64,000 bases of DNA from a virus. The translations under genes and the position numbers were made by a program. Below, piece after piece: positions 26,065 through 43,412 of this stretch. The first letter of the stretch is position 1. Every line of letters begins with the position of its first letter. The stretch lies in IMG/VR virus record IMGVR_UViG_3300045974_000513, positions 5,092-69,091 of that record. One strand, written 5' to 3'. Below the pieces are notes generated by a model. The model had not been told where the DNA came from. It worked only from the letters and a program-made list of their open reading frames with translations, and searched no databases.

Positions 26065-29000
26065 GGGTCACCCCGTCCTTGGTCCGCCGAACCGACTCGA
26101 CGTAGTACGCCTGCCTGGAGTGCAGCACCAGTTCGGACTGCCCCGACGACGAGATCGGGAACGCGCGCACGCCCTCCAGACCAGCGATGTGGATCAGCGC
26201 GCCGCCCTTCGCGTGCAGCCCGGAGAACTCCGTCGCGATGTCCCGACTCATCGACACCGACTGCGGGCCGCCGACCCCCTTCAGCGTCGCCCCCGGCACC
26301 GCGCGCGCGAGGAAGTCCGCCTTGTCCTCGGGCGCGATGAACGACAAGCCCCGGAAGAGGACGGTGTCCTTCTTCAGCACCAGCCCCTTCTCCTTGATCA
26401 TCCGGTCGATCTCGCGCTCGGCCTTGGCCACCCCCGGCCCGCCGCCCGATGCGTAGACGTCCACCGTCTCGCGCACCTTCGCGCTGGCGAAGTTGGTGTT
26501 CACGTACTCCTCGCAGAGGGCGCGGTAGGCCGGGATGTTGTCGTCGAACATCCCGCCGTCCTCGTAGAAGCGGCGGTCGCGGCGCTCGGTCGGCCCTTCC
26601 TCGTCGTCCTCATCGACCGCCAGCGCGTCCTCGCGGTCGTAGCTGTTCGCCATGCTGCTGGCGTTGCGCGACTCCTCGCCGCGCCGGATGGTCCCGGTGC
26701 GCGCGGCCATCTCGTGCGCCGACGCTGCGGCATCGTGCGCGTTCACCGCACGGATCGACGTGTCCGTGGGGCTGGCGGAGTCGCGGATCTCGTCTGCCCG
26801 CGCGCGGTGGAAGGCCGCCGCCGCCTTGTGCTCGTCGGGCGAGATGGCGTTCTGGGCCGCCTGCTGCTGCGCGGCGAGGTCGGGCTTCACCTCGCGCGGC
26901 TTCGTCTCGGGCGCTTCGCCTCCGCCGTCCTGGGTGTACTGGTTCCCGCGAAAGGGATGCCCGTCGAAGTCGCCCTTCTCCACCTTCCCCCGGATGACGG
27001 CGGCGAGGCGCGCGACGTTCTTGGGCTCGGGCGGGATCACCGAATCGCGCCTTGCGATCTTGGGCACCAGCGGCACGATCTTGGGCCTGCTGCCCGCCTC
27101 CCAGGCACGCAGGAGTCCGTCCTTCGTGTGCGGCCCGTTCGCGTCGTAGTAGACGGGGCCGATCTGGACGACGACGTGCTGATAGACCCGGTACTCGGCC
27201 GTGTCCGGGTCGTCCGGGTGGACGCTGCCCACCATCATCAGCTTGCCACCGAAGGCGCGCTGGATGGCCTCCGCCGCAAGCCAGCATCCGCCCTGAGTGA
27301 AGCTGTTGAGGCCCACTCCCTCGTCGTGCAGGATCTGCTTCGCCTCGCGGCTCGCCAGCGCCAGCCGGATGGCCCGCTGATCTACTGCGCCCGGGGCCCC
27401 CCCCCCGCCCCCTTGCGTCCATTGGTTTCCCCGGAACGGGTGACCGTCGAGGTCGCCCTTGCGGACCTCGCCGCCGGACAGCCGCATCACGTCCCGGTAG
27501 AACCGCCGCCACACCGGCTTCGCCACCTTCACCAGCGGCTTGCCTCCCGCCACCGCCGCATTGATCTCGGCGATCGTCTCGTGCGCCGCCGTGAAGAACG
27601 CCCGCACCCGATCCTTCTCGGGGGCCTTCTCGTCCATGTCGGCGAGGATCTTCCAGTACGCGCGCGAGTAGGGCGTCACCCCGTCGGCCTTCGCCAGCGC
27701 CGCCGTCGCCTTCTCCGTGCTCCACTTCCCCTCGCGGTCGATCGCCTCTATGGCGGCCTCGAACCGCGCGTGCCCGACCTCGTGCGCCAGGATCCCGGGC
27801 AACTCGTCCGGGCTGCTGATCGCCATCGGGTAGAGGGTGACCTCGCCGGTCTGGACGTTGAAGTCGCCCGCCCGGTTGAACTGCTTTCCGTCCACGTCGA
27901 TCGAGCCCGCGACGACGTCGGTGGACACCTTCACACGCTTCGGATCGAACCCCAGGCTGGCGCAGATCTGCTTCGCCATCCCCTTCGTGACGAGGACGCG
28001 GTTGGCCTTCTCCGCCAGCGCCGACGCGCTGTCTGCCTCGTCGAACGAGTCCAGCACGCTGGCGATGCCCGCGCTGTACTGGTTTCCCCGAAATGGGTGC
28101 CCGGGGAGGTCGCCCTTCGCCGTCTCGTACTCCCGGTACCTCTCGAATTCGGCCCACGCCAGCGTGGCGTCGCGGCGCGAATAGAATTTGTCGTCGCCCC
28201 CCAGGTAACCCATGTCCCATTGCTGCTCGGGCGGCTCGCTTCGCGGCGGGTCGCCGACGTCCACGATCACGGCGCGATTGGGCAGCGCCGAGACGTGGTG
28301 CTCGACGCCGCTGAACACCACTTGGCCCGTCGCCCGGTTCTTGAACGCCGCCCCCCTCATCGGACCCTTGCGCGCGATCTCGCTGTCGGACCACGGCGGG
28401 TAGAGGACGCCGCCGTCGCCGCGCTGGTATCGCTTCCCGTCGACCTCGACCTCGGCGCTGCCGCCCGCACCCGAGGTGTACTGGTTCCCCCGGAACGGAT
28501 GACCGACCGCATCGCCCTTGGTGAACCCGGGCTTGTCCATCAGCGCCAGCGCGCGCGCACCAGCCACCCGCGCGTGAAGGCGGTTCGCTGCCACCGACGC
28601 AGCCCTCGCGCGTGCCGACTTCCCCTTGGCCGGGGCCCGGGGCGGCGCGTTGGCGGCCGACTCGTGCGCCAGCCGCGCCTCGAAATGCGCGAGCCCCACC
28701 GCGCCGTGCCATCTGCTGTTCTCGGCGTGGAAGCGCGCGGCGTTCCGGTGGGCCTCGGGCGTCGCGGCGTTCTCTGCCGCTGCGGAGTCCCGCGCGAACC
28801 GGGCCTCCGCCTCGGCGTCGTGCGGGCCGATGCTCTGCTCGATGCGCGCCTCCTCGCCCGCGCGCGCGTCCAGTTCTCCCTCGGGGACGTGCGGCTGGTG
28901 GCCCCCAGCGTGCGACGGCGTCCCGACCGTCGCAGCGGTGACGGCAGCGACGACGGAGGTGAACTGGTTGCCTCGGAACGGGTGCCCTTCAAAGTCCCCC

Positions 29001-31825
29001 TTCCTGAACTCGCCCTTCTTCGACACGGACGCCTTGTGTAGCGTGTCGCGGACCTTCTTCCAGGCGGCGGGCATCTCCCGCTTCTCGCCCTTCAGCTTCA
29101 TCGCCTGGATGCCTGCGTACTCCGCCAGCGTCTCGATGGCCGCCAGTTGCAGCCGCTGCCCGTGGGCCTTCTCGCCGCTACCCGCCGCCTCGGCGGCCCA
29201 GTCCCAGATGCCCGCCGCGTAGGCGGTCGGCCGACTGCCCTTCGCGTCGCGGAGCTTCTCCAGCGCAGCGAGGTTGCCGATGGTGTCGAAGAAGATCCTG
29301 GGCTGCCGCCGGTACGCCTCGTAGACGCGCGCGTGGTTGACCTCGTGCGCGATGGTCCCCTCGGCCGTGCCCGTCGAGCCGAAGATGATCGCGCGCCCGA
29401 CGCCGTCGAGTTGGAGGGGGTGGATGGTGATCTCTCGCGTCGCCGGGTCGTAGCCGCCCACGCGCGCCGCGCGGTCGCCGTTCTTGAGGCGGCCGAACGA
29501 CGCCCTCGTGGAGATCGCGATCCGGCCGGTGTACCCCTCTTCCTTTGCGATCCGGGCGGCGGCGTCCTTCGCCTCCTTGACGATGCGGGCGTCGCGCAGC
29601 GCAGGGGACTCCTCCTTCTCCTTGGGCTTCCCCGGCCCCTCTGGCGTCCAGTCGTCGCCGAAGGCCGCCTCGTCGTTCTCCTTCCGGTTGCGTTCCTGCT
29701 CCTTCGCGGTCAGCCGTCGCGCGGCATCTACCGGCCCGTCGCCTACCCCCACGGTGAACTGGTTTCCTCGGAAGGGATGCCCCTCGAAATCGCCCTTCTT
29801 GATCCGCGCGCCGACGCGGTTCGGCCGTTCGTCGAGCACCCACGCTGGCACGTACATCACGCCCTGCTGCCGCCAGTAGGTCGTGCGGTGATTCCCGTCG
29901 ATCAGGGAAAGCTGCCCGTGCGGCAGCACGCGCACCTTCGCGGGAGGGAAGACCGCGCGCATGGAGTAGTCCTCCTGCCACGGACCATCCACCGGCTCGT
30001 CCCCCAGCATCTCGTGCAGATCCTCGATCGGGATCCAGGCGCGGTACACCTCGGTCGGCCACCCCTTCGTGCCGTAGTCGCGGAGGATCGACTCCTCGTC
30101 GACCCCGCCGGTCTCCGCCGTGTCCATCAGATCCACGTCCCGCCAGTCGACCTTGACCTGCACCCTCGTGCGCGGCGGCTGTTCGAGGCCGGTCCGGTCG
30201 CCCCAGGAGTCCTCGTCGTCGTCCCCCCCGGCCCCTTCGCCGTCGGTGTATTGGTTTCCTCTGAACTCGTGGCCCGGGAGATCGCCTTTGCCCAGGCCAT
30301 CCAGCAGCGCGGGTTCGAGGACGGCGATGGGCTCGTAGACCACCGTCGTCTCGGCCGCGCTCCAGTCCACCAGCCGCAGCGCGACCGTGGCGCGCGCACG
30401 GCCCGCACCGGAGTAGCGGGACGCCGTTCGGATCGAGGTCGAGGCGTTGCGGACCGGAACCCTGGCGCGTACCTCGCCAGCCCTGCCCCGGCAGGACGCC
30501 GTTCGGATCGACGTCGCTGCGTTGCGCCAAGCGTCGGGGTCTGGGACGGGCTGGCGCAGCGGGATCACCACCGACCCGCCAGCGCGCCAGGAGGTAACGG
30601 CCTGCGATGATGCGCCGACCGGATTGGCCGCCGTCGCTGCCGTCGCGGTGGGGCAACTCGTAGCGACCGAGGTCGGGACGATTCCCCTGACGGGGTTCGC
30701 CACCGTGGACGCCGACGCCGCAGGGGCCGAGGTCGTGGCCCCGCCCTTCGCGGTGATGGCCCGCGCCGTCGTCGTGGCCGTCGCGGTCGGTGCGAACACC
30801 GCCCTGCTGGCCGTCCCGGTCGCCGCGCTGGCCCGCGCCACGGTGGTCGCCTGGACCCGTGGTGCAGAGGTGGACGCGCCGCCGCGCGCGGAGATGGACC
30901 GGGCCGTGGAAGTGGCCTGCGCCTGCGTCTCGACCTCGCCCTCCGCGCCGCCCGCCGCCGACACCAGCCGGGCGGTGGACGTGGCCTGGGCCCGAGGGGC
31001 GCTGGCGGATGCGTTCCGCGTCGCCGCTGCGGTGATCGCCCTGGCCGTGGACGTGGCCTGCGCCCGTGGCGCGGACGTCGCCGCCGTCGAGGCCCCGCCC
31101 GCTGAGACCGCCCGCGCGGTCGAGGTCGCCTGGGCACGGGGCGCGGAGGTCGTGGCAGCACCGGCCGCCGAGACCGTCCGCACGGTGGGCGTGGCCTGCG
31201 CGCGCGGCGCGGCGGTCGTCGCCCCACCGGCAGCACCCACCACCCTCGCGGTGGATGTCGCCTGGGCACGAGCGGCCGCTGAAGTCGCCCCACCGGCCGC
31301 GCCGGATGCCCGTGCCGTGCTCGTCGCCTGGGCGCGCGGGACGGACGTGGAGGCGTTCGCACGGGCGGACACCGCGCGCGCGGTCGACGTTGCCTGCGCG
31401 CGAGGCGCGGAGGTCGACGCGTCCGTGTGTGCTGAAACCGTCCTGGCTGTGGACGTCGCCTGCGCGCGGGGGGCGGACGTCGAGGCGCTGACCGAACCAG
31501 CGCCCGCGACGGGCCGGGCAGTACCCGTCGCCTGGGCCTGGGGCGCGGACGTCGAAGCGTTGACCGCAGCCGCCGAGGCAGCGCCCGTGACGGCGCGCGC
31601 CGTGCTGGTCGCCTGCGCGCGCGCGACAGAGGTCGACGCGCTCCGCGTGGCCGATGCGGCGATGGCCCGCGCGGTGCTCGTCGCCTGCGCCTGGGGCGCG
31701 GAGGTGCTCGCCCCTCCGGTCGCCACCGCGCCGAGGACGGCGTCCGAGATGACCAGCGCCGGGGCGTCGGGCCCCGCAGCCTGGGTCGGACCCCACCGTC
31801 CTCGGAAGACCTCCAGCCAGCGCAT
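26036..31825 (-). CDS. Ala/Thr/Ser-repeat fibre-like protein fused to seven motif-tagged cargo units (1929 aa)
   Basis: About 16 AQATSTAR repeats, then ParB-like (LIDGNHR), zincin (HEVNH), His/Ala module, small domain, zincin (HEVGH), papain-like (GGC...QHVVV...YYDANG), and His module + R-S-E ART (LFRG...QSVS...QSE). Confidence 0.85.
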   Translation of the reverse strand: MRWLEVFRGRWGPTQAAGPDAPALVISDAVLGAVATGGASTSAPQAQATSTARAIAASATRSASTSVARAQATSTARAVTGAASAAAVNASTSAPQAQATGTARPVAGAGSVSASTSAPRAQATSTARTVSAHTDASTSAPRAQATSTARAVSARANASTSVPRAQATSTARASGAAGGATSAAARAQATSTARVVGAAGGATTAAPRAQATPTVRTVSAAGAATTSAPRAQATSTARAVSAGGASTAATSAPRAQATSTARAITAAATRNASASAPRAQATSTARLVSAAGGAEGEVETQAQATSTARSISARGGASTSAPRVQATTVARASAATGTASRAVFAPTATATTTARAITAKGGATTSAPAASASTVANPVRGIVPTSVATSCPTATAATAANPVGASSQAVTSWRAGGSVVIPLRQPVPDPDAWRNAATSIRTASCRGRAGEVRARVPVRNASTSIRTASRYSGAGRARATVALRLVDWSAAETTVVYEPIAVLEPALLDGLGKGDLPGHEFRGNQYTDGEGAGGDDDEDSWGDRTGLEQPPRTRVQVKVDWRDVDLMDTAETGGVDEESILRDYGTKGWPTEVYRAWIPIEDLHEMLGDEPVDGPWQEDYSMRAVFPPAKVRVLPHGQLSLIDGNHRTTYWRQQGVMYVPAWVLDERPNRVGARIKKGDFEGHPFRGNQFTVGVGDGPVDAARRLTAKEQERNRKENDEAAFGDDWTPEGPGKPKEKEESPALRDARIVKEAKDAAARIAKEEGYTGRIAISTRASFGRLKNGDRAARVGGYDPATREITIHPLQLDGVGRAIIFGSTGTAEGTIAHEVNHARVYEAYRRQPRIFFDTIGNLAALEKLRDAKGSRPTAYAAGIWDWAAEAAGSGEKAHGQRLQLAAIETLAEYAGIQAMKLKGEKREMPAAWKKVRDTLHKASVSKKGEFRKGDFEGHPFRGNQFTSVVAAVTAATVGTPSHAGGHQPHVPEGELDARAGEEARIEQSIGPHDAEAEARFARDSAAAENAATPEAHRNAARFHAENSRWHGAVGLAHFEARLAHESAANAPPRAPAKGKSARARAASVAANRLHARVAGARALALMDKPGFTKGDAVGHPFRGNQYTSGAGGSAEVEVDGKRYQRGDGGVLYPPWSDSEIARKGPMRGAAFKNRATGQVVFSGVEHHVSALPNRAVIVDVGDPPRSEPPEQQWDMGYLGGDDKFYSRRDATLAWAEFERYREYETAKGDLPGHPFRGNQYSAGIASVLDSFDEADSASALAEKANRVLVTKGMAKQICASLGFDPKRVKVSTDVVAGSIDVDGKQFNRAGDFNVQTGEVTLYPMAISSPDELPGILAHEVGHARFEAAIEAIDREGKWSTEKATAALAKADGVTPYSRAYWKILADMDEKAPEKDRVRAFFTAAHETIAEINAAVAGGKPLVKVAKPVWRRFYRDVMRLSGGEVRKGDLDGHPFRGNQWTQGGGGGAPGAVDQRAIRLALASREAKQILHDEGVGLNSFTQGGCWLAAEAIQRAFGGKLMMVGSVHPDDPDTAEYRVYQHVVVQIGPVYYDANGPHTKDGLLRAWEAGSRPKIVPLVPKIARRDSVIPPEPKNVARLAAVIRGKVEKGDFDGHPFRGNQYTQDGGGEAPETKPREVKPDLAAQQQAAQNAISPDEHKAAAAFHRARADEIRDSASPTDTSIRAVNAHDAAASAHEMAARTGTIRRGEESRNASSMANSYDREDALAVDEDDEEGPTERRDRRFYEDGGMFDDNIPAYRALCEEYVNTNFASAKVRETVDVYASGGGPGVAKAEREIDRMIKEKGLVLKKDTVLFRGLSFIAPEDKADFLARAVPGATLKGVGGPQSVSMSRDIATEFSGLHAKGGALIHIAGLEGVRAFPISSSGQSELVLHSRQAYYVESVRRTKDGVTHVFTRAIKE
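30590..31720 (-). repeat. About 16 tandem 21-27-aa STSAPRAQATSTAR repeats
   Basis: Visible in the translation and in the DNA (gtcgcctg[gc]gc recurring every ~65-80 nt). Confidence 0.9.
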
Positions 31826-33123: not shown

Positions 33124-35475
33124 CTACTCCTTCTTGAAATGGACGGTGGCCCTTCCGCCGCCGTCCGTTGGGTTGTTGGGTGCGTCGAGGTCGCCCTTGT
33201 TCAGCGTGATCGGCTTGCCCTGCACCATGAAGGTCGCGGGCTTGCCCATGTGATCGAGGACGGAGGCGGGCGACCACTCACCGTTCCTCGCCTCGGCCCC
33301 ACCGAAGTACCGGAGGTCGACGGGGATGGTCTTCAGGCCCGCGCGCCGCGCCGCACGCACGCGGTGGTTGCCCTCCGCGATCTTCGTGGTCCCGTCCGCC
33401 TCGACCCAGACCATGATCGGGTTCTTCGCGTCGTACCCCTTCTCGCGGATCGAGGCCTCCAGCGCGGCGAGGCGCACCTCTTCGTCCGGGCTGGGCTTCG
33501 CCAGCATGACGTGCTCGTCGTTGTGGCCGGGCAGCAGGATCACCTTGCTGATGGGGAGGTCGACGCGGTCGAAGGCGGCGGTCGCGGTCGACGGATTCGC
33601 CCGGACCCAGGACTGCCCGCGAGGCCCGCCCTCGTGGTCGAGGCTGCCGGGATCGACCGGGTTGTCGCGCCAGAACCCGGCGGCGGAGAGGGCGTCCTCG
33701 TTGAGGCGCAACTCCTTCTCGCCGGTCATCGACGCGCCACCCTCGGTGTACCGATCACCATCGGGCGACGTCCATTGGTTCCCCCGGAAGGGATGGCCCA
33801 GGAAGTCGCCCTTCTTGACCGGGATCGGGACCGCCTTCCAGTCGTGGCGGAAGGTGACCAGCATCTTGTCGGGGTCGCGGTGCTGGTGCGTCGCGGTGGC
33901 CTCGTGGGCTTCCACGATCCACTCGGGCTTGATGTCCTCCTCCAGCGTCCGGTGAAGCTCTGGGTCCAACTCGGAGTCGCTGTCCAGGCGCGCGGCGACG
34001 TCGCCCGGGAGGCGGACGGTCAGCACGATCGGCACCTCCGCGTCGTTCACGTCCGCAGACCGCGCCCAGGAGTAGGCCTCGTCCTTGTCGGTCGCAACGT
34101 AGACCGCCCTAGCGCGCCGCCCCTGCGTGACCTCGGGGAAGTTGCGACGGCTCTTCGCGCCAGCGACGGTGATCCCCTCGGTGGCGATGCTGGGGAGGTG
34201 CCGCATGAAGGTGCCGTGGTAGACGGTGACCCCTTCCGCGTGCTGGTTGCCTCTGAACGGATGCCCGGGGAGATCGCCCTTGTGCATCGCCGGGTCGCGC
34301 ACCACGCTGATGTCCTCGGCCGCGATCTTGTCGGCCGTGAACATCGCCTCGCCCCACGGCATGTCCCGCGTCCCGACATCGTCCACCGCGAAGTCCTCCC
34401 GCGCCCACGCCTCCGGGTCGATGCGGAGGACAACGACGGGCGGCGGGTCATCGTGCTGGTCGGCTGCGTGAGCCTCGACGCGCTGCCGCCAGAACTCGAC
34501 GCCCGCCCGGTCGGTCGTGAAGACGCGCCCCTTGCTGTGGGACTCGTACACTCCGCCGCGCCCAGCCGTGGAGGCTGCACCGGGGACGAGCCCATGCGCC
34601 GCGATCTCCTCCAGCCGGTCGGCCGTCGTGACGTGGTAGACGGCCGGGTCGCTGTCCTCGTCCTCGGGGAGATCGACGCGCGGCAGGCCATCGTCCTCGC
34701 CCCAGGTGCGCGGCCCCTCGTCCCCCTCGCCTTCGCCGTCCTCCGCCTCGCCTTCACCATCGGTCCATTGGTTGCCCCGGAACTCGTGGCCGGGGAGATC
34801 GCCCTTGCGGATCCGCCTGGGCAGCGGCGGCCCGTGCCAGCGCCGGTACAGGGCCATCACGCCGGGGCCGTGCCTCTTGCCGGACAGGTGCTGCGCGAAC
34901 ACCTCTGCGACGAATTCGCCCGGGGCCGTCGCGGCGTACCCACTCACCCTCCGCGCCACCTTCTCCTCGGCGGGCTTGAACTCCTCCGCCTCCTCAACCC
35001 GGAACCGCTGCGCGTTGGTCATGCTGCTGACGTGCGCGGCGTGGCCCAACTCGTGAAACACGGTCTCGGCGTCCACGGAGTTGGGATTGTCGGAGAAGAT
35101 CAGCGTCGGGAGGTGCCCCCCGGCATCCCAGGAGGACTCCATCTCGCCTGCGGAGCCGCGCTGCATCCGGCCCCCGATGCGGACCTTGACCGGCATGGGG
35201 ACGCCCATCGCGCGCGCCCGGTTCAGCGCCTCCTCGACGACCCCAGCCACGATCTTCGCGTCCGCCTGCTCCTCGCGCCCACCCTTCGTGCGGATCACGA
35301 TCGGGACAGCGGGGCCGTCGCCCTTGCCCTCGGACCATTGGTTCCCGCGAAAGGGGTGCCCGTCCACGTCCCCCTTCCCGATCACCTCGACCGGAGTCTG
35401 CTTCGACTCGTGCAGCCACGCCTCGTCCACGACGGGCGACTGCTTCGACTCGACGAGGAAGGCCTCGCGGTTCAC
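33124..35475 (-). CDS. Cargo polyprotein: zincin + two Tpt1/DarT-like ARTs + ParB/Srx-like domain (783 aa)
   Basis: HELGH...SGYA...EFVAEVF; YHVT...IAAHGL; YHGT...SIATEGI..VYVAT; SIREKGYD..PI.V..IAEGNHRV. Four KGD motifs. Start reassigned to GTG 35475 (GTGA overlap). Confidence 0.85.
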   Translation of the reverse strand: MNREAFLVESKQSPVVDEAWLHESKQTPVEVIGKGDVDGHPFRGNQWSEGKGDGPAVPIVIRTKGGREEQADAKIVAGVVEEALNRARAMGVPMPVKVRIGGRMQRGSAGEMESSWDAGGHLPTLIFSDNPNSVDAETVFHELGHAAHVSSMTNAQRFRVEEAEEFKPAEEKVARRVSGYAATAPGEFVAEVFAQHLSGKRHGPGVMALYRRWHGPPLPRRIRKGDLPGHEFRGNQWTDGEGEAEDGEGEGDEGPRTWGEDDGLPRVDLPEDEDSDPAVYHVTTADRLEEIAAHGLVPGAASTAGRGGVYESHSKGRVFTTDRAGVEFWRQRVEAHAADQHDDPPPVVVLRIDPEAWAREDFAVDDVGTRDMPWGEAMFTADKIAAEDISVVRDPAMHKGDLPGHPFRGNQHAEGVTVYHGTFMRHLPSIATEGITVAGAKSRRNFPEVTQGRRARAVYVATDKDEAYSWARSADVNDAEVPIVLTVRLPGDVAARLDSDSELDPELHRTLEEDIKPEWIVEAHEATATHQHRDPDKMLVTFRHDWKAVPIPVKKGDFLGHPFRGNQWTSPDGDRYTEGGASMTGEKELRLNEDALSAAGFWRDNPVDPGSLDHEGGPRGQSWVRANPSTATAAFDRVDLPISKVILLPGHNDEHVMLAKPSPDEEVRLAALEASIREKGYDAKNPIMVWVEADGTTKIAEGNHRVRAARRAGLKTIPVDLRYFGGAEARNGEWSPASVLDHMGKPATFMVQGKPITLNKGDLDAPNNPTDGGGRATVHFKKE

Positions 35476-38400
35476 TTCTTCCCCTTCCGCTTCGGGGCCA
35501 CGATCCCCTCGGCCCGCATCACGAACGGCGAGAAGCCCCCGTTGCGCCCGTCGGTCAGCACGCCGTAGTACTTCGTCTCCGACATCGACTTGTAGACGTC
35601 CTTCGTCGAGATGCGGATCCCGAAGTACCCAGCGCCCGGCACCCACCCCAGCGTCGGGTCGACGACCTCGCCCGTCGCCTTGTCGACCACCCAGGCGTGG
35701 TGCACCGGGAAGGGCACGCGCGCCGAGACCATGTAACCCTCGGTGTACTCGTACTTCGACGGGTCATCCATCATCAGCTTGGTCGCGTTCATGAAGCACT
35801 CCTTCGGCGCGCCCAGCTTGATGTTCGGTGCCCGCGTCGGCACGTCCATCGCCTTCCCGGCCTTCAGCACGTACTTCGCCAGCGCGCCCACGGAGGCCAT
35901 CGGCGCGATGGCGTCGCGCACCTCGTCGGCCGTCATTGGCTGCCCGTCGAGGTCGGCGTCGCTGCGGACCCCGTCCTTCTGCTTGAGACCCTTCAGCCAC
36001 GCCTGCTCCATGCTCGACATCTGCTTGAAGTCGTCGGGCAGCGGCACAGGCTTGCCGGTCTTGGCCGCCTCGTTGCGGTCGGGGCGAAGCGACGGCGGGT
36101 CTTCACCTGAGTCGGGATCCCACCCGGACGCTGCGTCGGCCTCGGCCATCGCCTGGATCTGCGCCCCCAGCTTCGACCCCGGAAGCGCCTCGATCGACGC
36201 GATCTGCGCCGCCTCGGTCCTCGCCTCGGCCCGGTCCTTCTCGGTGAGGAAGCCCCCGGTCTTCGCGCGGGCCTCCACCAGTCGGTCCGCCATCGCCTCC
36301 ATCGTGGTCTGGAACTTCTCGCCGCCCTCCTTGCCCCCACCGCTGGTGTACTGGTTTCCTCTGAAGGGGTGACCGGGCGCGTCCCCCTTGCGGACCTTGG
36401 CCTTGGCCCACGGTCCTCTCAGCGTCAGCGCATCCCGGTGTCGGACCACGACGTCCCGGTCGGCGTCCGTAAACTCCTTCCCGCGCCGGGCGTCCATGCG
36501 GTCCTGCTCTTCGCGGATGGCCTCGCGGCCCCACGGCAGCGCCTCGGACGCGAAGTCGCCGCGTCGCCCCTGGCCGACGTACTCGCTGGCCTCCTCGCGC
36601 GTCTTGAACGCGCCGCTGTGCGTGACGAACCCGTCCTCCCAGTCGTCCTCGGTCCAGTCGGGCACCGAGAGGATGTCGTGGGACGCGCCGGTAGCGACGA
36701 TCTTGCCGGTGCTCTTCTGGCGGAACCCGGCAGCGCGGAACGGCGCGCCCTTCCCGTCCCACCGATCGCCTCCGCTTGCACCGTCGGTGTGCTGATTCCC
36801 TCGGAAGGGATGGCCCTCTGCGTCCCCCTTGCCGACCCAGCCCTTCGCCACCCAGTCGATCGAGCGCCGCACCGCCTTCACGATCGCGCCCTCGTTGCCG
36901 CGCAGCGCCTTCTCGATGGCGTCCCGGTCGACCCGGACGTTGACGACGTACCCGTCCTCCGCGAACCCGTAGACCTCGCCGCCCTTGTTGGTCGCGTTGG
37001 TCAGCGTCATCCGCAGCAGCACGCGCCCGTCCTTCGACGAGAAGTCCGTCTGCCCCTTCTCGATCAGCGCCTTCGGGTCCGCGCCGTAGGTCTTCGCCAT
37101 CTTCTCGAACTGCTTCTGGTTCAGGTCGAGCACCTTGCCCAACTCCTCGTTGGCGCGGTACCTCGTCGCGTGGACCGTGAGGTGGTCTTCCTCCCACGAG
37201 AAGCCGTCCATCTTCGCGCCCACCATCCCCAGCGTCATCTTGGGCAGCATCCCCGTGATCTCGCCCGCCGCCTTCGTGAAGCGCGCCTTCACCTCGGACG
37301 AGAGGTCGCCGCGCGCACCGATCTGCTCGCGGATCGTCTTCACGCACGTCGCCCGGTCGATCTTCTTCTGGGCGAACTGCGTCAGCGTCTTGATGGACTC
37401 GGGCACCGACCGAAGCAGCGGCGGCGTCTTCTCCTTGGCGAACAGCGCCATGTTGTCGGCCACCGCGAACGCCGTGCCCACCGGCTCGTTGGCGAAGTCG
37501 ATGCCCGCCCAGTCGTGGCCTGCGATCAGGGCCCGGACCTGCTGCGCCCCGTGCGCGCCGAAGGCCTCCTTCACGTCGGGGATCAGCGCATCCTCCGCGT
37601 ACTGCGTGCTCCACCGTGGGTGGTCGCCGTCGAGGAACATCCGCGAGGGTGGCGTGAGGTAGCCCGTGTCGTGGTAGACGGCTGCGAGGGTGACGGCCAC
37701 CCGGTTCTCGGGCGTGTTCTGGTTGCCCGGCAGCACCTTGAGGATGTCCTTCGCCATCTCCGCGTCGCCGTTGAGATGGTGGATGCCGTGGTCGCCCAGC
37801 GTGCGCGACTGCGCCTCGAACTCCTGGGCGATGAGGTGATCGGAGGCTGCCATCGTGAGGCGAGCCGCGACCTCCGGGTGGACGCCCGCCTGGATCAACT
37901 CGTCGTGCAGCCCGCCCACCATCGTCGCAGCGGTCTCGATCGACTTCTCGTGCATCTGGTCGGCGTACTGCATCACGCGCGCGATCGAGTCGGCCCGGCC
38001 ATCGCCCGTGGACGGCCGCTCCCGGTCGCCCAGCAACTCCTCCATCCGCGCAGGCACGGTCGTCTCGGGGTCCGCCAGCGTGTCGCGGTCCCGCACCGAC
38101 ATGCGCGCCCACTTGTCCTTCACCGTGCCGACGTTGTTGTCCTTGGAGTCGGCCGCCAGCGCCGCGTCCGCCTTCTCGCGCCAGTAGTCGAGGGACATCG
38201 TGCCGCGCCGGTCCTCGGCCTCGGCCGTGGTGTCGCGGCTGGTGCCAGCGTCGTCCTCGTCGCCGCCACCGCCGGTCCCATCGGTCCATTGGTTCCCTCT
38301 GAAGGGATGCCCGTCGCTGTCGCCCTTGCCGATCCGGCTGGCCTTCGGGTGATCCTTCAGCCGCGCCGCGACGATCTGGTCCGCCTCGGCCTTCGACCCC

Positions 38401-41400
38401 ACGTAGTCGGCGGAGTGCGTCTCGTTCCCCTCGGCGTCCTTCCGCTGCACCACCCAGTTGCGCGAGTGGCGGTCGTACCAGCGCTCGATGGTCGCAACCG
38501 GCACGTCCATCATCGCGGGGTGGCGATCGAAGGCGTCGTCCACCGGATCAGCGGGCTGCGCCTTCGACGCGAGGTGCGCCTTGTACTGCTGGACCGCCTC
38601 CTCCTTGTCGAACGTGGAGGTCTCGAACCGCTTCGCGCTCGGCCCGTCCGCCGGGTCTTGGAACGCCCAGACCTTGCCCGCCGACTCCTCGTCCACGTCC
38701 TCGGCGTTGTCGGGATCCTCCTCCTTGATGGCGAGGTGCGGCTTGCCATCGATGTTGGCGACCGCGTCGCACTCTTGGTAGAGGAAGTCGGAATTCGACA
38801 TCGAGACGCCGCGAATCGCGCCCTCCTTCTTGGGCATCTTCACTCGCGCCTCGTAGAGCAGGAACGCGTCGTACCCGAAGTCGAAGTGGTCGATGTTGTC
38901 GCGCTTCGCCTCGGGCATCGCGGCCAGCGCGTCGGCCATCCGCTCGCGGTCGGCGCGCGAACGCTCGTGCGGCCTGACCTTGTTGTCGGGCAGGGAAGCG
39001 CCGCCTGCTGCGCCGCCCCCCGTGCCATCGGAGAACTGGTTTCCACGGAAAGGGTGCCCCGCGAAGTCGCCCTTCTTCACCCCGGCGCGCGCGTAGGCGT
39101 CCAGGGTGCCGATCAGGAAGGCGTCCTTCCCGAACCGCATCCCGTCCCACCCCTTCGCCTTCAGCCGGGCGATGGCGCGGTCGTTCCCCTGGATGAACAC
39201 CTCCGCCGCCAGATCGTCGAAGTCGGTGCGCGACATCGACGCTGGGTCGACCCCGGTGGCGTACCCGACGATGGCCTTCGCCCCCGGCGCGTTCCAGTCC
39301 CCCAGGTCGAGCAGGCGCGGCTGGCGATGCACACCGTAGGCCTTGGTGTCGCCCCATTGCCCTGCGCTCGCCCGGTCCGTGCTGACGTACACGCCCTGCG
39401 GGAAGGAGGAGGAGACCTGTTCGTTGCCTCCCGCCGATCCCCGGTAGACGACGTCCGGCAGGCTGCCCCCACCGTCGGTGTACTGATTGCCTCGGAAGGG
39501 GTGTCCATCGACGTCCCCCTTCGCCACCTTCTCGGCATCGAACCCGACGCCGCCCTCGTCCGCTGCCTGCGGGTCGTCGACGAGGATGGGGATCACCGCG
39601 CACCGGCAGTTCGGATGGGCAGGCGGCCCCTCGATCTGGTCGCCGTCGTAGTCGAAGAGGCTGCCCAGCGGCACCTCCTCGCCGTCCATCTCGTCGCACT
39701 TCGGGCAGCAGTCCGCGCCGGTCGCCCAGCGCACGCCCTCGACCACGCCTGAGTCCTCCCAGGCGATGAGGTTGCCCGCGACGTTGGCGATGGCGAGTTC
39801 GGTGCGCGCGATCATCTCGGCGCGCGGCCCGTGGAACAGCGGGTTCGTGTAGAGGGCCTCCCGAAGCTGGGCGACGGTCGCCTCGTCCTCGATGGCGGCC
39901 TCGACCATGCGCTGCACACCGTCCTGCATCGTGTTCGTGATGCCGGTGATCATGTTGCCCGCGTGCAGGGTGGCCCACTCCGCCGCGCGCTGATGCACGA
40001 GGTCGATCGCCACGCCGACGGAGAGGACGCCCTGCGACCGCAGTTGCTTCAGCGCCGCCTCGGCAGCGAGCTTCACGGTGTCGCCCAGGTCGCCCTGGAT
40101 GGCTGCGATCAGGGAGTCGAGGTCTTCCTGCGTGACGACCGTCCGCAGCCGATCGATGTCGGCAGCGGTGATGGTGATGCCCTCGGCCTTCTCGACCTCG
40201 ACGCCCAACTCCTGGGCGAGGCGCGCGAGGTACTCGGCGAAGAACACGTTGAGGCGGCCAGCGATGACCTCCTCCAACGCGGTCAGTCGGGGTACCGCAT
40301 GACCCGGTCTTTTCCGGGGACCGCGCGTCCCCCGACCTCCCTTCAGCACGTCGAGGTCGAGGTCGGCCTTGTAGCTGGCCTTCGACCGGGACGCCTCTCG
40401 GGCCGCTTGGCTGTGCGCGCGGGCCGACGGGTGCTTCTGGCGCAGCGCCTCGGCAGCGAGCCTGTGCTTGGCCTCGATGGTGCGGTGATGCGTCGCGGCC
40501 TGCTCGTCGTTCCCTCGCTCGGCGCGTTCGGCCTGCCCGCGCGAGTACTCTGCGGCGGCCTCGTGCTGGTCGGGCTTCCTCGCGCTTCGGGCGGCCTTGT
40601 ACTGGCGCATCTCCTCGGCGTAGTCGCGCGGGCCCTCGGGCGCGGGAGCGCTTCCACCGTCGGAGTACTGGTTGCCTCGGAATTCGTGGCCGGGGATGTC
40701 ACCCTTGGCGAGCCAGAGGAGGCGGTCCTTGGAACGGAAGACGACGTCACCGTTCTCCAGCGTGGTGTAGTCCCCCTCGTGCTGTAGCTTGGCGAACGGG
40801 TTGGGCTTCTTCGCGCCGAACGGCGGAGCACCACCAGCGGGCTTCCCCCCGAACGGACTGCCCCCCTTGGCCCCGAACGGCGGCGCACCTGTTGGCTTTC
40901 CGAACGGCGGCGCGCCGGGCTTGCCCCCCCCGAACGGATTCGGCTTCGCACCGAACGGAGGCGGCGGCCCACCGGGGCCTCCCTGGGGGGGTGAAGGCGG
41001 CCCGGACGATCCAGGCACTCCCGGTGGACCGCCAAAGGGATTCATCGGCGGAGGCGGCGGGTCGTCGAGCCCCTCGATCGGCTCCCACCCGTAGGCGTCG
41101 CGCGCCTCGTTCTTCGTGGCGATGCCTGCGGCGGTGAGGGCGCACCAGACGTCCGACTTGATCTTCGGGTCGCTGATCTCCTCGTCCTCGTAGGCGAACT
41201 CCATCTCGGGCGCGTCGAACGCGGTCGCGAGGATGGTGTCCATCACGTCCTTCCACCACAGCTTCAGCGGTTCGAGGCCCTCGGACAGCGCCTGCTTCTC
41301 GGCTGTCTCGGCGGTGGCGCGGTTCATCTGCGCAACCAGCGCCTGGGGGGAGAGGCTGAACGCGTAGCAGATGAGCCGCGCGAGCCACTCGTCGAACATG

Positions 41401-43412
41401 TCCTTGAGGATCGGCTCCTTCGTGGGGATGGGCTTGATGCCGCCGGGGACGAAGCGCATGCGGCGGCGCGCCTCGGTGTCGCCCGACAGGATGGTGTCCC
41501 AGTAGGTCTGGAATTCGGCGACCTGGGCCGGGGTCCACGTCTCGGGGACGCCCATGATCATGTCGGGGATGGAACCGGCGGTGTAGTACTCGCCCTGCGA
41601 CATCTGGCGGCGCAGCGCGATGTCCACCGTGGTGACGACCTGCTCGACGGGGCTCTGCCCGTAGATGCGGTTCGAGCGCACGTTGCGCGGCGAGTACACG
41701 ACCTCGTCGGTGGTGTACTGGAACGCGGGCATCCCCTTGAGGTTCTGGACGAAGGCGGGGTCGGGCGGGCGAGGGGTGCGGCCGTCCTCGCGCAAGAGGC
41801 GCTTCAGCGTCGCGCCGTCCACGACCTCCAGCAGGACGCCGACCTCGTCGGCGGTGTGCGTGGCGATCTTGATGGGCTTCTTCGCCATCGGGTTGCCGTC
41901 GGGATCGAGCAGGGGCTTGCCCTGGGCGTCGAGGCGCGGCTTGAAGTCGGCGGGGGGCAGGGGCGCGCCGTCGGGCCCCAGCTTCGGTTCCTCGGGCGGC
42001 AGAGGCTTCCCGTCCGGGCCGAGGCGAGGCTTCGCGGGGGGCAGGGGCTTACCATCGGGACCGAGGCGCGGCTTCTCGTCGCCGCCCTCCTCGTCGGCGG
42101 GGCCGAACGGCTTGTCGCCTGTCGGTGCATCCTGCTTCTCGCCAGCCCGCGCCTCGCGATCACCACTCGCAGGAGACCCCGGACGTGCGCCGGGCGACGG
42201 TGGCGTGCCCTCGCCCCCCTCGGACGGCGGTTCGCCGTCTCGCTGCGACCCCTCCGCCCTGACGCCAGCGCCGGGCTGCGCGCCAGCGTCCCTGCCATCG
42301 GCTACGGCAGGCCCCTCCCTCTTCGGGCCGCCCGGGAACCGCCCGGCGGCCTTCGCGATGTCCTCGCCGATCGACAGCTTGCGGGCCGCGAACGGGTTCG
42401 GCTTCTTCTCGGGCTGCGCCGGATCACCATTCGAGGAACCGGCGTCGCTGCCGGTTCCTCCGGTCGGCTCGGCCCGCGCGTCCCGCGCCGATGCGTCACG
42501 GGGTGCGGCGAGGGATCCCGATGCGGGAGCGTCGCCTGCGGGAGGCTCGCCACCGAACGACCAATGGTCGTCCTTGCCCTCCGCCGGGGCCCCGGCCTGC
42601 CCCGCAGGGCCGCGCGGCGCGCCCAAGGGGCGTCCCTGGTCGCCTTCAGCACCCGCCTCGCCGGGCGGGCCGCCAGCTTCGCCAGCGCCCTGCTCCTGGC
42701 CGTCGCCCTGCCCGTCGAGCCCGCCCTCGATCGCGCCCTCGTCGTCCTGCGTCGGCTGCCCGAACGGCGGCGGCCCACCCTGGCCCGGCACCTTCCCGCC
42801 CAGCGCCCCAGGCACGCCCATCACGTCCGGCTCGTCCTCGATCGACGACGGCAGGTTCGGCTTGCCCCGGGTCCGGTTGATGTAGATGGCGGGCGCGTCG
42901 ATCACCAGCAGGTCTTCCAGCAGCGCCCGCTGCCACACGCGGAACGGCGTCACGCCATCGGGCCGACGCAGCGCAGCCTTGATCGCCCGCGCCTTCTCGC
43001 CGCCGTTGCCCTGGTCGTCGCGCAGCTTGATCGTCCATTGCTGCCCGGCCATCTGATCCTTGCGGGTCTCGATGGCGAGGCGCATCAGGTCGAGCCCGCC
43101 CAGTAGCGGATCCGCCATGCGCCGCAGGGTGGTGAAGTTGATCAGGTTCTCGCCTGTCTCTCCACGAGGCAGGTACGTCATGTTCACGGCGAACGGGTAG
43201 TCGAAGGCGCGGCCCTTCGACTCGTCGGGCGCGACAGGCGGCATGGGCTTCGATGGCCCGAACCAACCGTCGGGCGCGCGCCCGGTGATCGCGAAGCGCG
43301 CTGCCGAGGAGACCGTGTCCCAGAACGACTTGGAGGGCTCGACCTTGCCGGGCTGCGTCTCCGTCATCTCGATCTCGCGGCCCCCGGCCGCCTTCCCATT
43401 CGGCGTCGCCAT
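35472..43412 (-). CDS. Portal protein fused to MuF (SPP1 gp7-like) and six motif-tagged cargo units (2646 aa)
   Basis: Portal motifs (LAIETRKDQ, YGQSPVEQ, DEWLARLIC, MNRATAE, EGLEPL) directly after terL; MuF RAEMIARTE...CPKC...PPAHPNCRC; then ART-like, unknown, HD hydrolase, small domain and papain-like peptidase. Confidence 0.92.
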   Translation of the reverse strand: MATPNGKAAGGREIEMTETQPGKVEPSKSFWDTVSSAARFAITGRAPDGWFGPSKPMPPVAPDESKGRAFDYPFAVNMTYLPRGETGENLINFTTLRRMADPLLGGLDLMRLAIETRKDQMAGQQWTIKLRDDQGNGGEKARAIKAALRRPDGVTPFRVWQRALLEDLLVIDAPAIYINRTRGKPNLPSSIEDEPDVMGVPGALGGKVPGQGGPPPFGQPTQDDEGAIEGGLDGQGDGQEQGAGEAGGPPGEAGAEGDQGRPLGAPRGPAGQAGAPAEGKDDHWSFGGEPPAGDAPASGSLAAPRDASARDARAEPTGGTGSDAGSSNGDPAQPEKKPNPFAARKLSIGEDIAKAAGRFPGGPKREGPAVADGRDAGAQPGAGVRAEGSQRDGEPPSEGGEGTPPSPGARPGSPASGDREARAGEKQDAPTGDKPFGPADEEGGDEKPRLGPDGKPLPPAKPRLGPDGKPLPPEEPKLGPDGAPLPPADFKPRLDAQGKPLLDPDGNPMAKKPIKIATHTADEVGVLLEVVDGATLKRLLREDGRTPRPPDPAFVQNLKGMPAFQYTTDEVVYSPRNVRSNRIYGQSPVEQVVTTVDIALRRQMSQGEYYTAGSIPDMIMGVPETWTPAQVAEFQTYWDTILSGDTEARRRMRFVPGGIKPIPTKEPILKDMFDEWLARLICYAFSLSPQALVAQMNRATAETAEKQALSEGLEPLKLWWKDVMDTILATAFDAPEMEFAYEDEEISDPKIKSDVWCALTAAGIATKNEARDAYGWEPIEGLDDPPPPPMNPFGGPPGVPGSSGPPSPPQGGPGGPPPPFGAKPNPFGGGKPGAPPFGKPTGAPPFGAKGGSPFGGKPAGGAPPFGAKKPNPFAKLQHEGDYTTLENGDVVFRSKDRLLWLAKGDIPGHEFRGNQYSDGGSAPAPEGPRDYAEEMRQYKAARSARKPDQHEAAAEYSRGQAERAERGNDEQAATHHRTIEAKHRLAAEALRQKHPSARAHSQAAREASRSKASYKADLDLDVLKGGRGTRGPRKRPGHAVPRLTALEEVIAGRLNVFFAEYLARLAQELGVEVEKAEGITITAADIDRLRTVVTQEDLDSLIAAIQGDLGDTVKLAAEAALKQLRSQGVLSVGVAIDLVHQRAAEWATLHAGNMITGITNTMQDGVQRMVEAAIEDEATVAQLREALYTNPLFHGPRAEMIARTELAIANVAGNLIAWEDSGVVEGVRWATGADCCPKCDEMDGEEVPLGSLFDYDGDQIEGPPAHPNCRCAVIPILVDDPQAADEGGVGFDAEKVAKGDVDGHPFRGNQYTDGGGSLPDVVYRGSAGGNEQVSSSFPQGVYVSTDRASAGQWGDTKAYGVHRQPRLLDLGDWNAPGAKAIVGYATGVDPASMSRTDFDDLAAEVFIQGNDRAIARLKAKGWDGMRFGKDAFLIGTLDAYARAGVKKGDFAGHPFRGNQFSDGTGGGAAGGASLPDNKVRPHERSRADRERMADALAAMPEAKRDNIDHFDFGYDAFLLYEARVKMPKKEGAIRGVSMSNSDFLYQECDAVANIDGKPHLAIKEEDPDNAEDVDEESAGKVWAFQDPADGPSAKRFETSTFDKEEAVQQYKAHLASKAQPADPVDDAFDRHPAMMDVPVATIERWYDRHSRNWVVQRKDAEGNETHSADYVGSKAEADQIVAARLKDHPKASRIGKGDSDGHPFRGNQWTDGTGGGGDEDDAGTSRDTTAEAEDRRGTMSLDYWREKADAALAADSKDNNVGTVKDKWARMSVRDRDTLADPETTVPARMEELLGDRERPSTGDGRADSIARVMQYADQMHEKSIETAATMVGGLHDELIQAGVHPEVAARLTMAASDHLIAQEFEAQSRTLGDHGIHHLNGDAEMAKDILKVLPGNQNTPENRVAVTLAAVYHDTGYLTPPSRMFLDGDHPRWSTQYAEDALIPDVKEAFGAHGAQQVRALIAGHDWAGIDFANEPVGTAFAVADNMALFAKEKTPPLLRSVPESIKTLTQFAQKKIDRATCVKTIREQIGARGDLSSEVKARFTKAAGEITGMLPKMTLGMVGAKMDGFSWEEDHLTVHATRYRANEELGKVLDLNQKQFEKMAKTYGADPKALIEKGQTDFSSKDGRVLLRMTLTNATNKGGEVYGFAEDGYVVNVRVDRDAIEKALRGNEGAIVKAVRRSIDWVAKGWVGKGDAEGHPFRGNQHTDGASGGDRWDGKGAPFRAAGFRQKSTGKIVATGASHDILSVPDWTEDDWEDGFVTHSGAFKTREEASEYVGQGRRGDFASEALPWGREAIREEQDRMDARRGKEFTDADRDVVVRHRDALTLRGPWAKAKVRKGDAPGHPFRGNQYTSGGGKEGGEKFQTTMEAMADRLVEARAKTGGFLTEKDRAEARTEAAQIASIEALPGSKLGAQIQAMAEADAASGWDPDSGEDPPSLRPDRNEAAKTGKPVPLPDDFKQMSSMEQAWLKGLKQKDGVRSDADLDGQPMTADEVRDAIAPMASVGALAKYVLKAGKAMDVPTRAPNIKLGAPKECFMNATKLMMDDPSKYEYTEGYMVSARVPFPVHHAWVVDKATGEVVDPTLGWVPGAGYFGIRISTKDVYKSMSETKYYGVLTDGRNGGFSPFVMRAEGIVAPKRKGKK

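Follow-up and report, generated by a model that had tools for sequence, protein, structure and literature searches.

A portal-MuF polyprotein and a 27-kb block of peptide-tagged cargo genes in an uncultured siphovirus-like phage

The window analysed here is a stretch of 64,000 nucleotides (positions 5092-69091 of the linear, 69,091-base IMG/VR virus record IMGVR_UViG_3300045974_000513, which is estimated to be 87% complete) from an uncultured, siphovirus-like phage from a pond. On its minus strand, a single uninterrupted open reading frame (ORF) at 35472..43412 encodes a protein of 2,646 amino acids (aa) and 283.6 kDa, termed P0001 (ATG to TGA), in which a portal protein is followed by a Pro/Gly linker, a His/Ala-rich helical module, a MuF domain and five cargo modules. 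The six joints of this chain carry one and the same peptide, termed tag in the following, of the form h-x-K-G-D-x-x-G-H-[PE]-F-R-G-N-Q-[YFWH], after which come S/T, D and a stretch rich in Gly. Each unit past the portal is opened by such a tag, in the order tag plus His/Ala module, MuF and five tagged modules. Since a tag stands at every boundary and again in five more ORFs, what we describe is not a single unusual gene but a block of tagged cargo that spans 27 kb. We regard it as somewhat probable that P0001 is a genuine portal-MuF polyvalent cargo polyprotein and that its tags are cutting and/or docking labels of modules which would be carried in the capsid and injected.

Tag 1, KGDIPGHEFRGNQY (aa 903-916; 40665..40706), stands at the joint between portal and His/Ala module. 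Tags 2 (aa 1298-1311; 39480..39521), 3 (aa 1447-1460; 39033..39074), 4 (aa 1696-1709; 38286..38327), 5 (aa 2195-2208; 36789..36830) and 6 (aa 2342-2355; 36348..36389) open the five units past MuF, where the motif is placed at aa 1303, 1452, 1701, 2200 and 2347; all six were recognised as a peptide motif and are encoded, like all parts of P0001, on the minus strand. The five unit boundaries set by a first-pass annotation of this DNA (39521, 39074, 38327, 36830 and 36389) each fall on the first nucleotide of a Lys codon in a tag, a motif which that annotation had not named. In a six-frame translation, the tag was found in 25 copies, all on the minus strand and within six consecutive ORFs at 16152-43412, and in none of the tail genes or other genes of the window; a degenerate DNA pattern returned the same 25 copies, with 0.00 expected from 100 shuffles. 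The wider consensus reads h-x-K-G-D-x-x-G-H-[PEA]-F-R-G-N-Q-[YWFH] plus a Gly-rich linker. Nineteen of the 25 tags open modules in the five ORFs between P0001 and the capsid gene, the protease/scaffold ORF included, and the six tagged ORFs together amount to 8,472 aa and 27.3 kb, or 39% of the record. As DNA, the copies are only 75% identical and their longest exact shared run is 21 nt, from which we conclude that selection acts on the peptide. The idea that the tags exist as DNA repeats driving module shuffling was rejected, since at most 21 identical bases are shared; the low exact sharing gives the impression that selection has worked against extended direct repeats at the DNA level. The tags are also rich in rare synonymous codons (AGA, CGA, CAT, GGA, CAA) despite a third-position GC content (GC3) of ~0.9.

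The G+C content of the window is ~70%, at which long chance ORFs are common, and thus the frame of 35472-43412 needs support. In the P0001 frame, GC3 lies at 0.79-0.99 over the full length, and the frame ranks best except in three 300-nt segments, which are lost narrowly and all lie in the Gly/Pro/Ala-rich aa 200-450; the coding signal leaves the frame only past the stop codon. The start is supported by a relative, P0152, which opens with nearly identical residues. The first-pass annotation had described the same uninterrupted succession of portal, PFG linker, His/Ala module, MuF and five units, and the Pfam matches given below as well as the coding-frame evidence bear it out. It had also named a stop codon lost by assembly error as a point to be checked. 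No lost stop is seen in contigs: run X1, assembled with a different assembler (depth 16), agrees over 35000-44000 with 0 differences and 0 gaps, and run X2 from a second study (depth ~3, thin cover) contains identical pieces across the junctions at 36374 (tag 6), 36815 (tag 5), 38312 (tag 4) and 40691. The check thus holds for contigs, not for raw reads, and at 39506, among the pieces listed, for X1 only; stretches that lack listed X2 cover count neither for nor against the ORF.

That an assembly or sequencing error removed a stop or shifted the frame and so joined separate genes is scarcely credible. Such an error would agree with simple relatives, in which the portal-MuF ORF ends after MuF, with support that comes from contigs only, and with one low-depth X1 contig (2.3 of 18.3) that carries an extra C behind 42608, inside the portal insert, as a minor variant or an error. 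However, the coding signal keeps to a single frame over 7.9 kb, the second assembler gave the identical sequence, the second study is identical over four junctions, three other contigs encode portal-MuF-cargo chains of 1,535-1,894 aa, and the first tag past MuF follows in frame, 20 residues on. Joints suggested by contig mapping (e.g. 38169 to 40433) were dismissed as noise, their sides being 20-21 letters and not on tags.

The N-terminal part of the portal (aa 1-183; 42864..43412) was assigned by phmmer matches to six related portal ORFs and by alignment with the 775-aa portal of Brevundimonas phage Strzyga, in which aa 43-179 are 45% identical to aa 43-183 of P0001. The portal core (aa 528-792; 41037..41831) matches Pfam Phage_portal (PF04860; 9.6e-15; aa 560-773, 55 bits at a cut-off of 39.1) and is 43% identical to the Strzyga portal, while TIGR01537 gave 28.6 bits and stayed under its cut-off of 112. 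Taken together, aa 43-183 and 528-800 of P0001 are collinear with aa 43-179 and 185-473 of the Strzyga portal, which has five residues where P0001 has an insert of 344 aa (aa 184-527; 41832..42863). By its composition, this insert is a Gly/Pro/Ala/acidic low-complexity region, and it carries KPRLGPDGKPLPP-type repeats near its end. In P0152, the closest of the large relatives found, with a portal 65% identical to that of P0001, this site is occupied by another low-complexity insert, which is highly acidic; two further large relatives, P0153 and P0154, and the simple relatives have none there. Behind the core lies a Pro/Gly linker with ~8 PFG repeats (aa 793-875; 40788..41036, assigned by composition). 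P0152 and P0153 have comparable PPFGG repeats behind their portals, and the simple 700-aa portal-MuF relatives do not; the linker repeats (PPFGAK...) recall FG repeats. The His/Ala-rich helical module (aa 920-1040; 40293..40655) has paralogues in the same genome, at the start of the scaffold described below and at the end of a 1,929-aa ORF (own-genome matches with E values of 7.5e-10 and 2.4e-10), and the unit of tag plus His/Ala module recurs in relatives and in bacterial genomes. The MuF / SPP1 gp7-like domain (aa 1062-1280; 39573..40229), which ends with CPKC...HPNCRC, was identified by Pfam Phage_Mu_F (PF04233, cut-off 29.6; 34.4 bits on the excised segment and 28.5 bits on the whole chain) and by the Strzyga portal-MuF alignment, with a weak match of TIGR01641 to the same region. 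PHROG 2662 ('portal protein') covers portal and MuF together, aa 523-1275 of P0001 aligning with profile positions 146-707 of 717. The large terminase TerL is encoded directly upstream of P0001.

The relatives of the portal chain were compared on the best 80 of 532 portal-core relatives confirmed in IMG/VR. MuF lies inside the portal ORF in at least 41 of the 80 and in a separate ORF in 8, so that the statement of the first-pass annotation that MuF is usually a separate gene is wrong for this lineage, as PHROG 2662 also indicates. Since the portal-MuF join is common here, the unusual part of P0001 is the ~1,350 aa of cargo behind MuF: more than 100 aa follow the portal core in 59/80 and more than 600 aa in 0/80, compared to 1,854 aa in P0001. 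Among 7,993 candidates scored (1,455-4,631 aa), at least three large relatives were found, namely P0152 (1,894 aa), P0153 (1,665 aa) and P0154 (1,535 aa), which all consist of portal and MuF plus cargo, with ADPrib_exo_Tox in two of the three. Their cargo is unlike that of P0001, except for the last module of P0152, which is homologous to the last module of P0001, M6 (39% identity); homologous portals thus share the fusion with different cargo, a comparison that the first-pass annotation had proposed. None of the three carries the tag of P0001 (KGD tag), and a second class of tag, [FYW]-x-E-x-[DQ]-[VQ]-P-R-D-x-x-G-R-W plus a Gly run (PRD..GRW tag), is present at matching places; in P0152 it reads [FW].E.D[VQ]PRD..GRW. 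Among the 80 loci, the PRD..GRW tag occurs in 7 portal ORFs and the KGD tag in none. Six simple relatives, found through the tag pattern, have TerL, a portal-MuF protein of ~700 aa, a protease-[tag]-His/Ala helices-scaffold ORF and a capsid protein, and their single tag lies between protease and scaffold. Since most relatives are untagged, the tags are not part of basic head assembly. Thus, fusion of portal and MuF is nothing unusual among these phages, whereas very large cargo chains are seldom seen and the tags are accessory.

The first of the five cargo modules behind MuF, M2 (aa 1318-1447; 39072..39461), is a distant ART-PolyVal-like domain according to BLASTP: it aligns over 130 aa with aa 305-429 of the neighbouring ORF 23686-26064, a Pfam ART-PolyVal domain (3.4e-30), at 23% identity and an E value of 7e-5. 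It also resembles (E 0.004) a module of a 783-aa ORF which weakly matches Tpt1/KptA. In the alignment with ART-PolyVal, the positions of 'VVYRGS' and 'YVSTD' match, and the segment of the partner that contains the Glu is opposite a gap. M2 has no Pfam match at E<=5 and no PDB match of its own. As a consequence, the label 'ART-like' of the first-pass annotation stands by its resemblance to a confirmed ART-PolyVal domain and not by any Pfam match of the module itself, and M2 is a weakly supported candidate ADP-ribosyltransferase (ART). M3 (aa 1470-1695; 38328..39005) has no family or PDB match, and only two 35-aa matches (E ~1e-4) were found. Searches of M2 plus M3 and of M6 against the sequences of PDB chains gave 0 matches each.

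M4 (aa 1720-2195; 36828..38255) is supported by homologue motifs and a fold model as an HD-superfamily, phosphodiesterase (PDE)-like, metal-dependent phosphohydrolase. It has 21 stand-alone, unannotated homologues of 406-750 aa, and GDHG..H, HD, D..H.RW, H and DN, a metal-binding signature, are invariant in the 22 sequences of the family. The AF2 model of M4 (pLDDT 80.9, pTM 0.78) was compared with the PDB by Foldseek, where the top matches are all PDE2/5/4 (class-I phosphodiesterases), HD-GYP or SpoT, and with BFVD, where the top four are phage HD hydrolases (prob 0.97-0.99); none of the fold matches reaches E<=1e-3 and their TM values are 0.22-0.48. Pfam HD gave 15.2 bits on M4, under its cut-off of 22, and 16.6 bits on the homologue P0135; searches against PDB chains yielded one chance match with the M4 sequence and none with the family profile. 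The 'HD' label of the first-pass annotation is supported by invariant motifs and HD/PDE-type fold matches, though Pfam HD stayed below cut-off. A role of M4 against nucleotide immune signals is no more than a conjecture. The Atlas look-alikes of M4 are SidE_PDE and HD (0.88-0.91), and SidE_PDE at 0.91 shares only 154 features and is a lead only. The occurrence of ART-like M2 and PDE-like M4 in one chain (36828-39461) recalls the pairing of mART and PDE in the SidE effectors of Legionella, which is likewise only a lead.

M5 is a small domain (aa 2218-2342; 36387..36761) that gave no match. M6 (aa 2365-2646; 35475..36320), which had been called papain-like, has a conserved core: Cys2539, His2572 and Asp2585 are invariant in 7 sequences. 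In the core of the AF2 model (pLDDT 61-89; 52 for the model overall), the Cys opens helix 210-220, with His and Asp on or beside the following strands. M6 has no Pfam, PHROG or PDB sequence match, its Atlas look-alikes include no named family, and a single 161-aa protein was found as a near-length relative. Foldseek against the PDB reached a best E value of 0.08 (prob <=0.14), with staphopain appearing at ranks 28 and 44 only, as noise. The invariant triad thus keeps the papain-like label plausible but unproven, the fold search having added nothing, and M6 may be described as a possible thiol hydrolase. In the AF2 construct of M6, the tag has a pLDDT of ~33 and is not packed against the following domain.

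The tag is by no means confined to this genome. The exact pattern GHPFRGNQ occurs in at least 118 IMG/VR stretches, and 200 distinct IMG/VR ORFs contain 267 tag instances, 242 of them distinct, with a consensus that equals that of P0001. Among these 242 instances, Gly, Asn and Gln are invariant, His is present in 241 and Asp or Glu in 230; Gly is enriched in the flank at +11 to +16, whereas positions before -8 show no compositional preference. When a profile built from 140 instances was searched against 1.84 billion cluster representatives, 2,300 matched at E<=1e-3, of which 461 reached <=1e-10 and 73 reached <=1e-30; a single protein can contain as many as 9 copies. The number of 2,300 is a lower bound, as single tag copies may score below threshold. 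The tag always lies ahead of a module and is often N-terminal in small proteins. In a quarter of the best 150 proteins, the first tag lies no more than 26 aa from the N-terminus, and in some it comes only 3-8 residues after the initiator Met; across the 150, the median spacing of tags is 216 aa (5-95%: 112-560; n = 417), and at least ~100 aa follow the last tag in 95%. We conclude from the early first tag and the residues past the last one that the tag is part of the module which follows and does not depend on any preceding sequence. Pfam searches on the 71 shortest of the best 150 returned ADPrib_exo_Tox (6), Phage_Mu_F (5), ART-PolyVal (4), DUF5872 (4), topoisomerase I (2; of the IB type) and PARP (2), besides one each of InPase, Acb1, XkdF-type protease, zeta toxin and ParB, as well as GNATs; ADP-ribosyltransferases total 12.

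A pattern scan of 185,579 species genomes gave 50 matches, of which 16 loci are true as judged by GD/GE flanks, the rest being chance or wrong-frame matches. The 16 true loci belong to Verrucomicrobiota, Pseudomonadota and others, and in 8 of them the tag is followed by the same His/Ala-rich basic helices; tag plus His/Ala unit was found in prophage-like regions, among them those of genomes labelled Ideonella livida TBM-1 (L139), Thauera mechernichensis TL1 (L171/L158-type) and Hydromonas duriensis DSM 102852 (L170), besides others such as L177, and the tag occurs in phages of many host phyla. No model in Pfam, PHROGs or NCBIfam matches the tag, and full-text literature searches on tag strings returned only unrelated papers. 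Among isolated phages, megablast of 20 kb gave no match, the loci of the two Brevundimonas phages Strzyga and Polewnik have no tag, and no cultured phage with the KGD tag was found in these searches. The PRD..GRW tag is present in 7/150 KGD-tag proteins and in 6/118 loci (one doubtful), and stand-alone homologues of M4 open with yet other headers, QPR.P.G...GGQ[FW] and GSGNFGH.GRPG..GGS, so that one cargo family wears at least four tags. By inspection, the tag classes share a core, D-x-x-G-[RHK]-(x)-[FW].

The C-terminus of portal proteins faces the capsid interior, and P0001 would thus carry its modules into the procapsid. The chain would enter as part of the portal ring, predicted to be a dodecamer at one capsid vertex, with ~12 copies of each module; the first-pass annotation had likewise proposed about 12 copies of each effector at the DNA exit, and a requirement for proteolysis to release the portal. 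The tags would act as module headers, the joints being cut inside the head and/or serving as handles to an internal head component. Freed or tethered enzymes would then exit with the DNA into the next host and could act early on nucleotide or ADP-ribose signals, proteins and nucleic acids, in counter-defence or takeover. Two roles of the tag, which do not exclude each other, come into question. That it is a cutting site, for the prohead protease, for a zincin module of the cargo or by self-cleavage, has in our view a chance just short of even, and the same slightly doubtful balance applies to a docking signal similar to the capsid-targeting sequence of phage T4. In T4, the internal proteins IPI-III and Alt bear an N-terminal capsid-targeting sequence which is removed by the prohead protease gp21; a short N-terminal peptide thus destines proteins of no common origin, one of them an ADP-ribosyltransferase, to be packed into the head and injected, and the label is the cutting site. 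This sequence may be the closest working analogy to the tag, which differs in that it has another sequence, is repeated within polyproteins, goes with a putative HK97-type protease and is itself a putative label for targeting or cutting.

A number of observations weigh against the reading of P0001 as a cut or docked and injected polyprotein. Packaging, cutting and injection of P0001 are processes that we infer. At the level of assembly, the MuF/cargo junction at 39506 is spanned by X1 only, which is possibly the source sample and hence not independent data, and by none of the X2 pieces listed. At the level of cargo, M2 may lack the catalytic Glu, judging from its alignment, and M3 and M5 had no family match in the searches run and have no assignable function. 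Any tag occurs in 15/80 loci of portal-core relatives, and 1 of 65 protease ORFs is tagged. Among 31 large tag-bearing viral records, a protease of the window's own type was found in 8 and MuF in 11 (5/9 and 3/9, respectively, in the nine records that are >=90% complete), and Pfam Peptidase_S78 over its cut-off and ClpP in 0/31 each. None of these co-occurs cleanly with the tag, in searches of doubtful sensitivity, since Pfam S78 misses the protease of the window as well. A pure cutting site is disfavoured by the length of the motif, which at 16 residues far exceeds usual prohead-protease sites, and by the Gly linker, which lies behind the tag and not ahead of it. Moreover, cutting at a tag 3-8 residues from Met would release almost nothing, so that a handle fits better there. 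A complex prediction for the protease (aa 1-168) with a 30-aa tag peptide gave a score of 0.01 and a mark of 0.32, values that speak neither for nor against cutting by this protease. Pure docking is in turn called into question by the different tags on orthologous cargo, some of them mixed in one chain, since docking would then need a tolerant reader.

The position of the Gly linker behind the tag and the N-terminal tags with almost nothing ahead would suit a chain that is never cut. In this case, the ~200-kDa extension would stay on each portal subunit, with the tags as flexible docking elements or spacers, and would remain in the emptied head or thread out attached. Most members of this lineage have an untagged portal-MuF fusion of 700-800 aa, which shows that permanent attachment of MuF is tolerated, and C-terminal portal fusions are tolerated in T4. 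Twelve extensions would amount to 2.4 MDa and, by a rough estimate, fill the room of <2 kb of DNA. We nevertheless consider a permanently uncut chain unlikely: enzymes tied to the portal could hardly reach targets in the host, the same tags part modules in ORFs without a portal or MuF anchor, and the modules are separate genes in other phages, so that they probably function as free proteins.

If the modules are released, as the cutting role of the tag would have it, the tag might do so by itself, e.g. by Asn-driven backbone cleavage at G-N-Q aided by His, and no dedicated protease would be needed. The invariant Gly, Asn and Gln, the nearly invariant His and the prevalent Asp/Glu across many host phyla, together with the lack of a consistently co-occurring reader, are in line with this, and inteins as well as the capsids of several viruses are known to cleave themselves by means of an Asn. 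However, alternative tags (PRD..GRW and others) on orthologous modules lack the invariant Asn or His, and the predicted disorder of the peptide (pLDDT ~33) leaves no evident catalytic scaffold, which makes self-cleavage improbable.

Similarly, we give little credence to the possibility that the chain is an expression device, which would be cut in the cytoplasm of the producing cell, where the modules would work late, with only portal or portal-MuF entering the head. Zincin-type peptidase modules are encoded in the same block, and in the part of their paper considered here, Iyer et al. suggest that peptidases of this kind could carry out the processing, be it ahead of packaging or later (PMC5512222). 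On the other hand, no tag of the 25 is found outside the interval from terminase to capsid gene, in ORFs whose overlaps (GTGA) suggest translational coupling, which is the position and timing of head components, the tagged families are elsewhere fused to portal, MuF or head protease, and enzymes of the ART, Acb1 and HD types would be useful early rather than late.

Beyond this genome, it is conceivable that interchangeable classes of header tags make up a general, previously undescribed address system of tailed phages, in which any tagged enzyme module would be loaded into the HK97-type head via one conserved reader, released at the tag and injected. The modules would be provided as separate genes or strung on portal, MuF, protease or other modules, with the portal as main carrier here. 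We offer this extension only tentatively.

The class of proteins to which P0001 belongs is already known, comprising polyvalent proteins, portal-MuF fusions and MuF-anchored effectors. Phages are known to bring enzymes along in their heads, and P0001 would be an extreme instance of this. Polyvalent proteins were described by Iyer et al. (2017, J Bacteriol, PMC5512222), to the extent of their main text, as effector domains fused to MuF and portal in phages and conjugative elements; the authors predict packaging and injection, propose proteolytic processing and call portal/MuF fusions 'the simplest architectures'. By this description, P0001 resembles polyvalent proteins in joining many unrelated effector-type domains in one polypeptide among virion genes, with five modules past MuF and a location between terminase and capsid genes. 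Hallmark domains of polyvalent proteins are found in neighbour ORFs (ART-PolyVal 3.4e-30, SprT-like zincin 5e-9 and ParB_N 2.7e-5), and P0001 itself has a distant ART-PolyVal-like module only and no LPD family match. In contrast to the simplest portal/MuF fusions of that main text, the portal of P0001 carries MuF plus five modules and is followed by five more chains. The same main text mentions neither a GNQ tag nor a recurring header peptide, and its supplements may list such motifs. A polyvalent protein of 2,811 aa, gp47 of phi24B, was detected in virions by proteomics and proposed as an ejection protein (bioRxiv 10.64898/2026.04.10.717836); going by the part of this preprint considered here, it is not fused to a portal, unlike P0001, and has the domains LPD1, LPD5 and LPD38. 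Portal-MuF fusions such as PHROG 2662 and the 775-aa portals of Strzyga and Polewnik share portal family, order and single ORF with P0001, and the name 'portal and MuF-like fusion protein' is used in GenBank for Arthrobacter phage Sonali; these simple fusions end after MuF and are untagged, whereas P0001 goes on with tagged cargo. As in P0001, variable enzymatic domains lie behind MuF in the MuF-anchored polymorphic toxins of temperate phages, which Jamet et al. are said to have reported in BMC Biol in 2017 as proteins with variable C-terminal enzymatic or toxin domains that are presumably delivered by the virion. To our knowledge, these usually have one toxin domain per MuF, without a portal or a repeated tag. 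Encapsulin cargo-loading peptides are short, have a flexible linker and address diverse enzymes to the inside of an HK97-fold shell by binding the shell protein; they are usually C-terminal, whereas the tags of P0001 head their modules. What is new here is the scale (2,646 aa on a portal, and tagged cargo that takes up 39% of the record), the insert within the portal, and the tag class with its relation to other classes.

If the tags are loading or release labels, they would provide a sequence rule for finding virion-carried, injected enzymes of counter-defence or host takeover in metagenomes, and at least 2,300 protein clusters, most of them unannotated, would already qualify. They would also allow a direct test of the prediction of 2017 that polyvalent proteins are packaged and processed, and could offer a handle to load chosen proteins into phage heads. 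P0001 illustrates how far a portal can be loaded, with 200 kDa per subunit behind the ring and a 344-aa insert inside, and the stand-alone HD/PDE family with its 21 unannotated homologues contains candidates for injected nucleotide-signal hydrolases.

In transcription order, P0001 is preceded by a TerS-like gene and TerL and followed by the cargo ORFs, the protease-scaffold, the capsid protein and tail genes; the gene in the small-terminase position, the ORFs of the cargo block and the protease-scaffold ORF are on the minus strand as well. The protein in the position of the small terminase (45269-45853) has a helix-turn-helix (HTH) with Sigma70_r4/HTH profiles and matches phrog_645, the label of which ('Rnase E') looks misleading; the large terminase matches Terminase_6N and 6C. 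Between the terminase stop and the portal start there is a gap of 324 bases (43413-43736), which holds only a 100-aa ORF in another frame, below the GC3 filter. At the other end, P0001 terminates within the GTG start codon of the ORF behind it, the two overlapping as GTGA at 35472-35475; cargo ORFs farther on overlap as well (26036-26064 and 23686-23693), and the overlaps suggest translational coupling along the cargo block. This next ORF (783 aa, P0027; 33124..35475) carries four tags, a ParB_N domain (2.7e-5) and the weak Tpt1/KptA match. It is followed by two untagged, Ala/Thr/Gly-rich ORFs (31828-33120; 274 aa and 154 aa), which thus interrupt the cargo block and one of which matches phrog_644, a family without a functional label, by the 1,929-aa ORF with seven tags and no family match (26036..31825), by a 792-aa ORF with three tags and the ART-PolyVal domain (23686..26064), and by a 989-aa ORF with three tags and SprT-like (5e-9) and M48-like zincin peptidase modules (20724..23693). 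A 106-aa ORF separates the latter from the last tagged ORF.

This last ORF, of 1,333 aa (16152..20153), consists of a putative HK97-type prohead protease (aa 1-165), a tag, a module, a second tag, His/Ala helices and a coiled-coil scaffold. In the protease, His66 and Ser109 are invariant in 8 sequences, along with E.SLVD.P; phrog_1028 'head maturation protease' matches at only 5e-4 and Pfam S78 does not match. The scaffold part (aa ~575-1333) opens with the tag and His/Ala helices and contains a zinc-ribbon-like motif, CDDC...CPEC, and a ~470-aa coiled coil with weak SMC profile matches and a scaffold-like C-terminus. The capsid protein was recognised by phrog_13692 (3e-121). Downstream of a tape-measure-like gene (9397-11469), a second giant ORF (711-9290, minus strand; 2,859 aa by the longest start, GC3 0.91) is untagged and presumably encodes a tail-tip or host-recognition protein.

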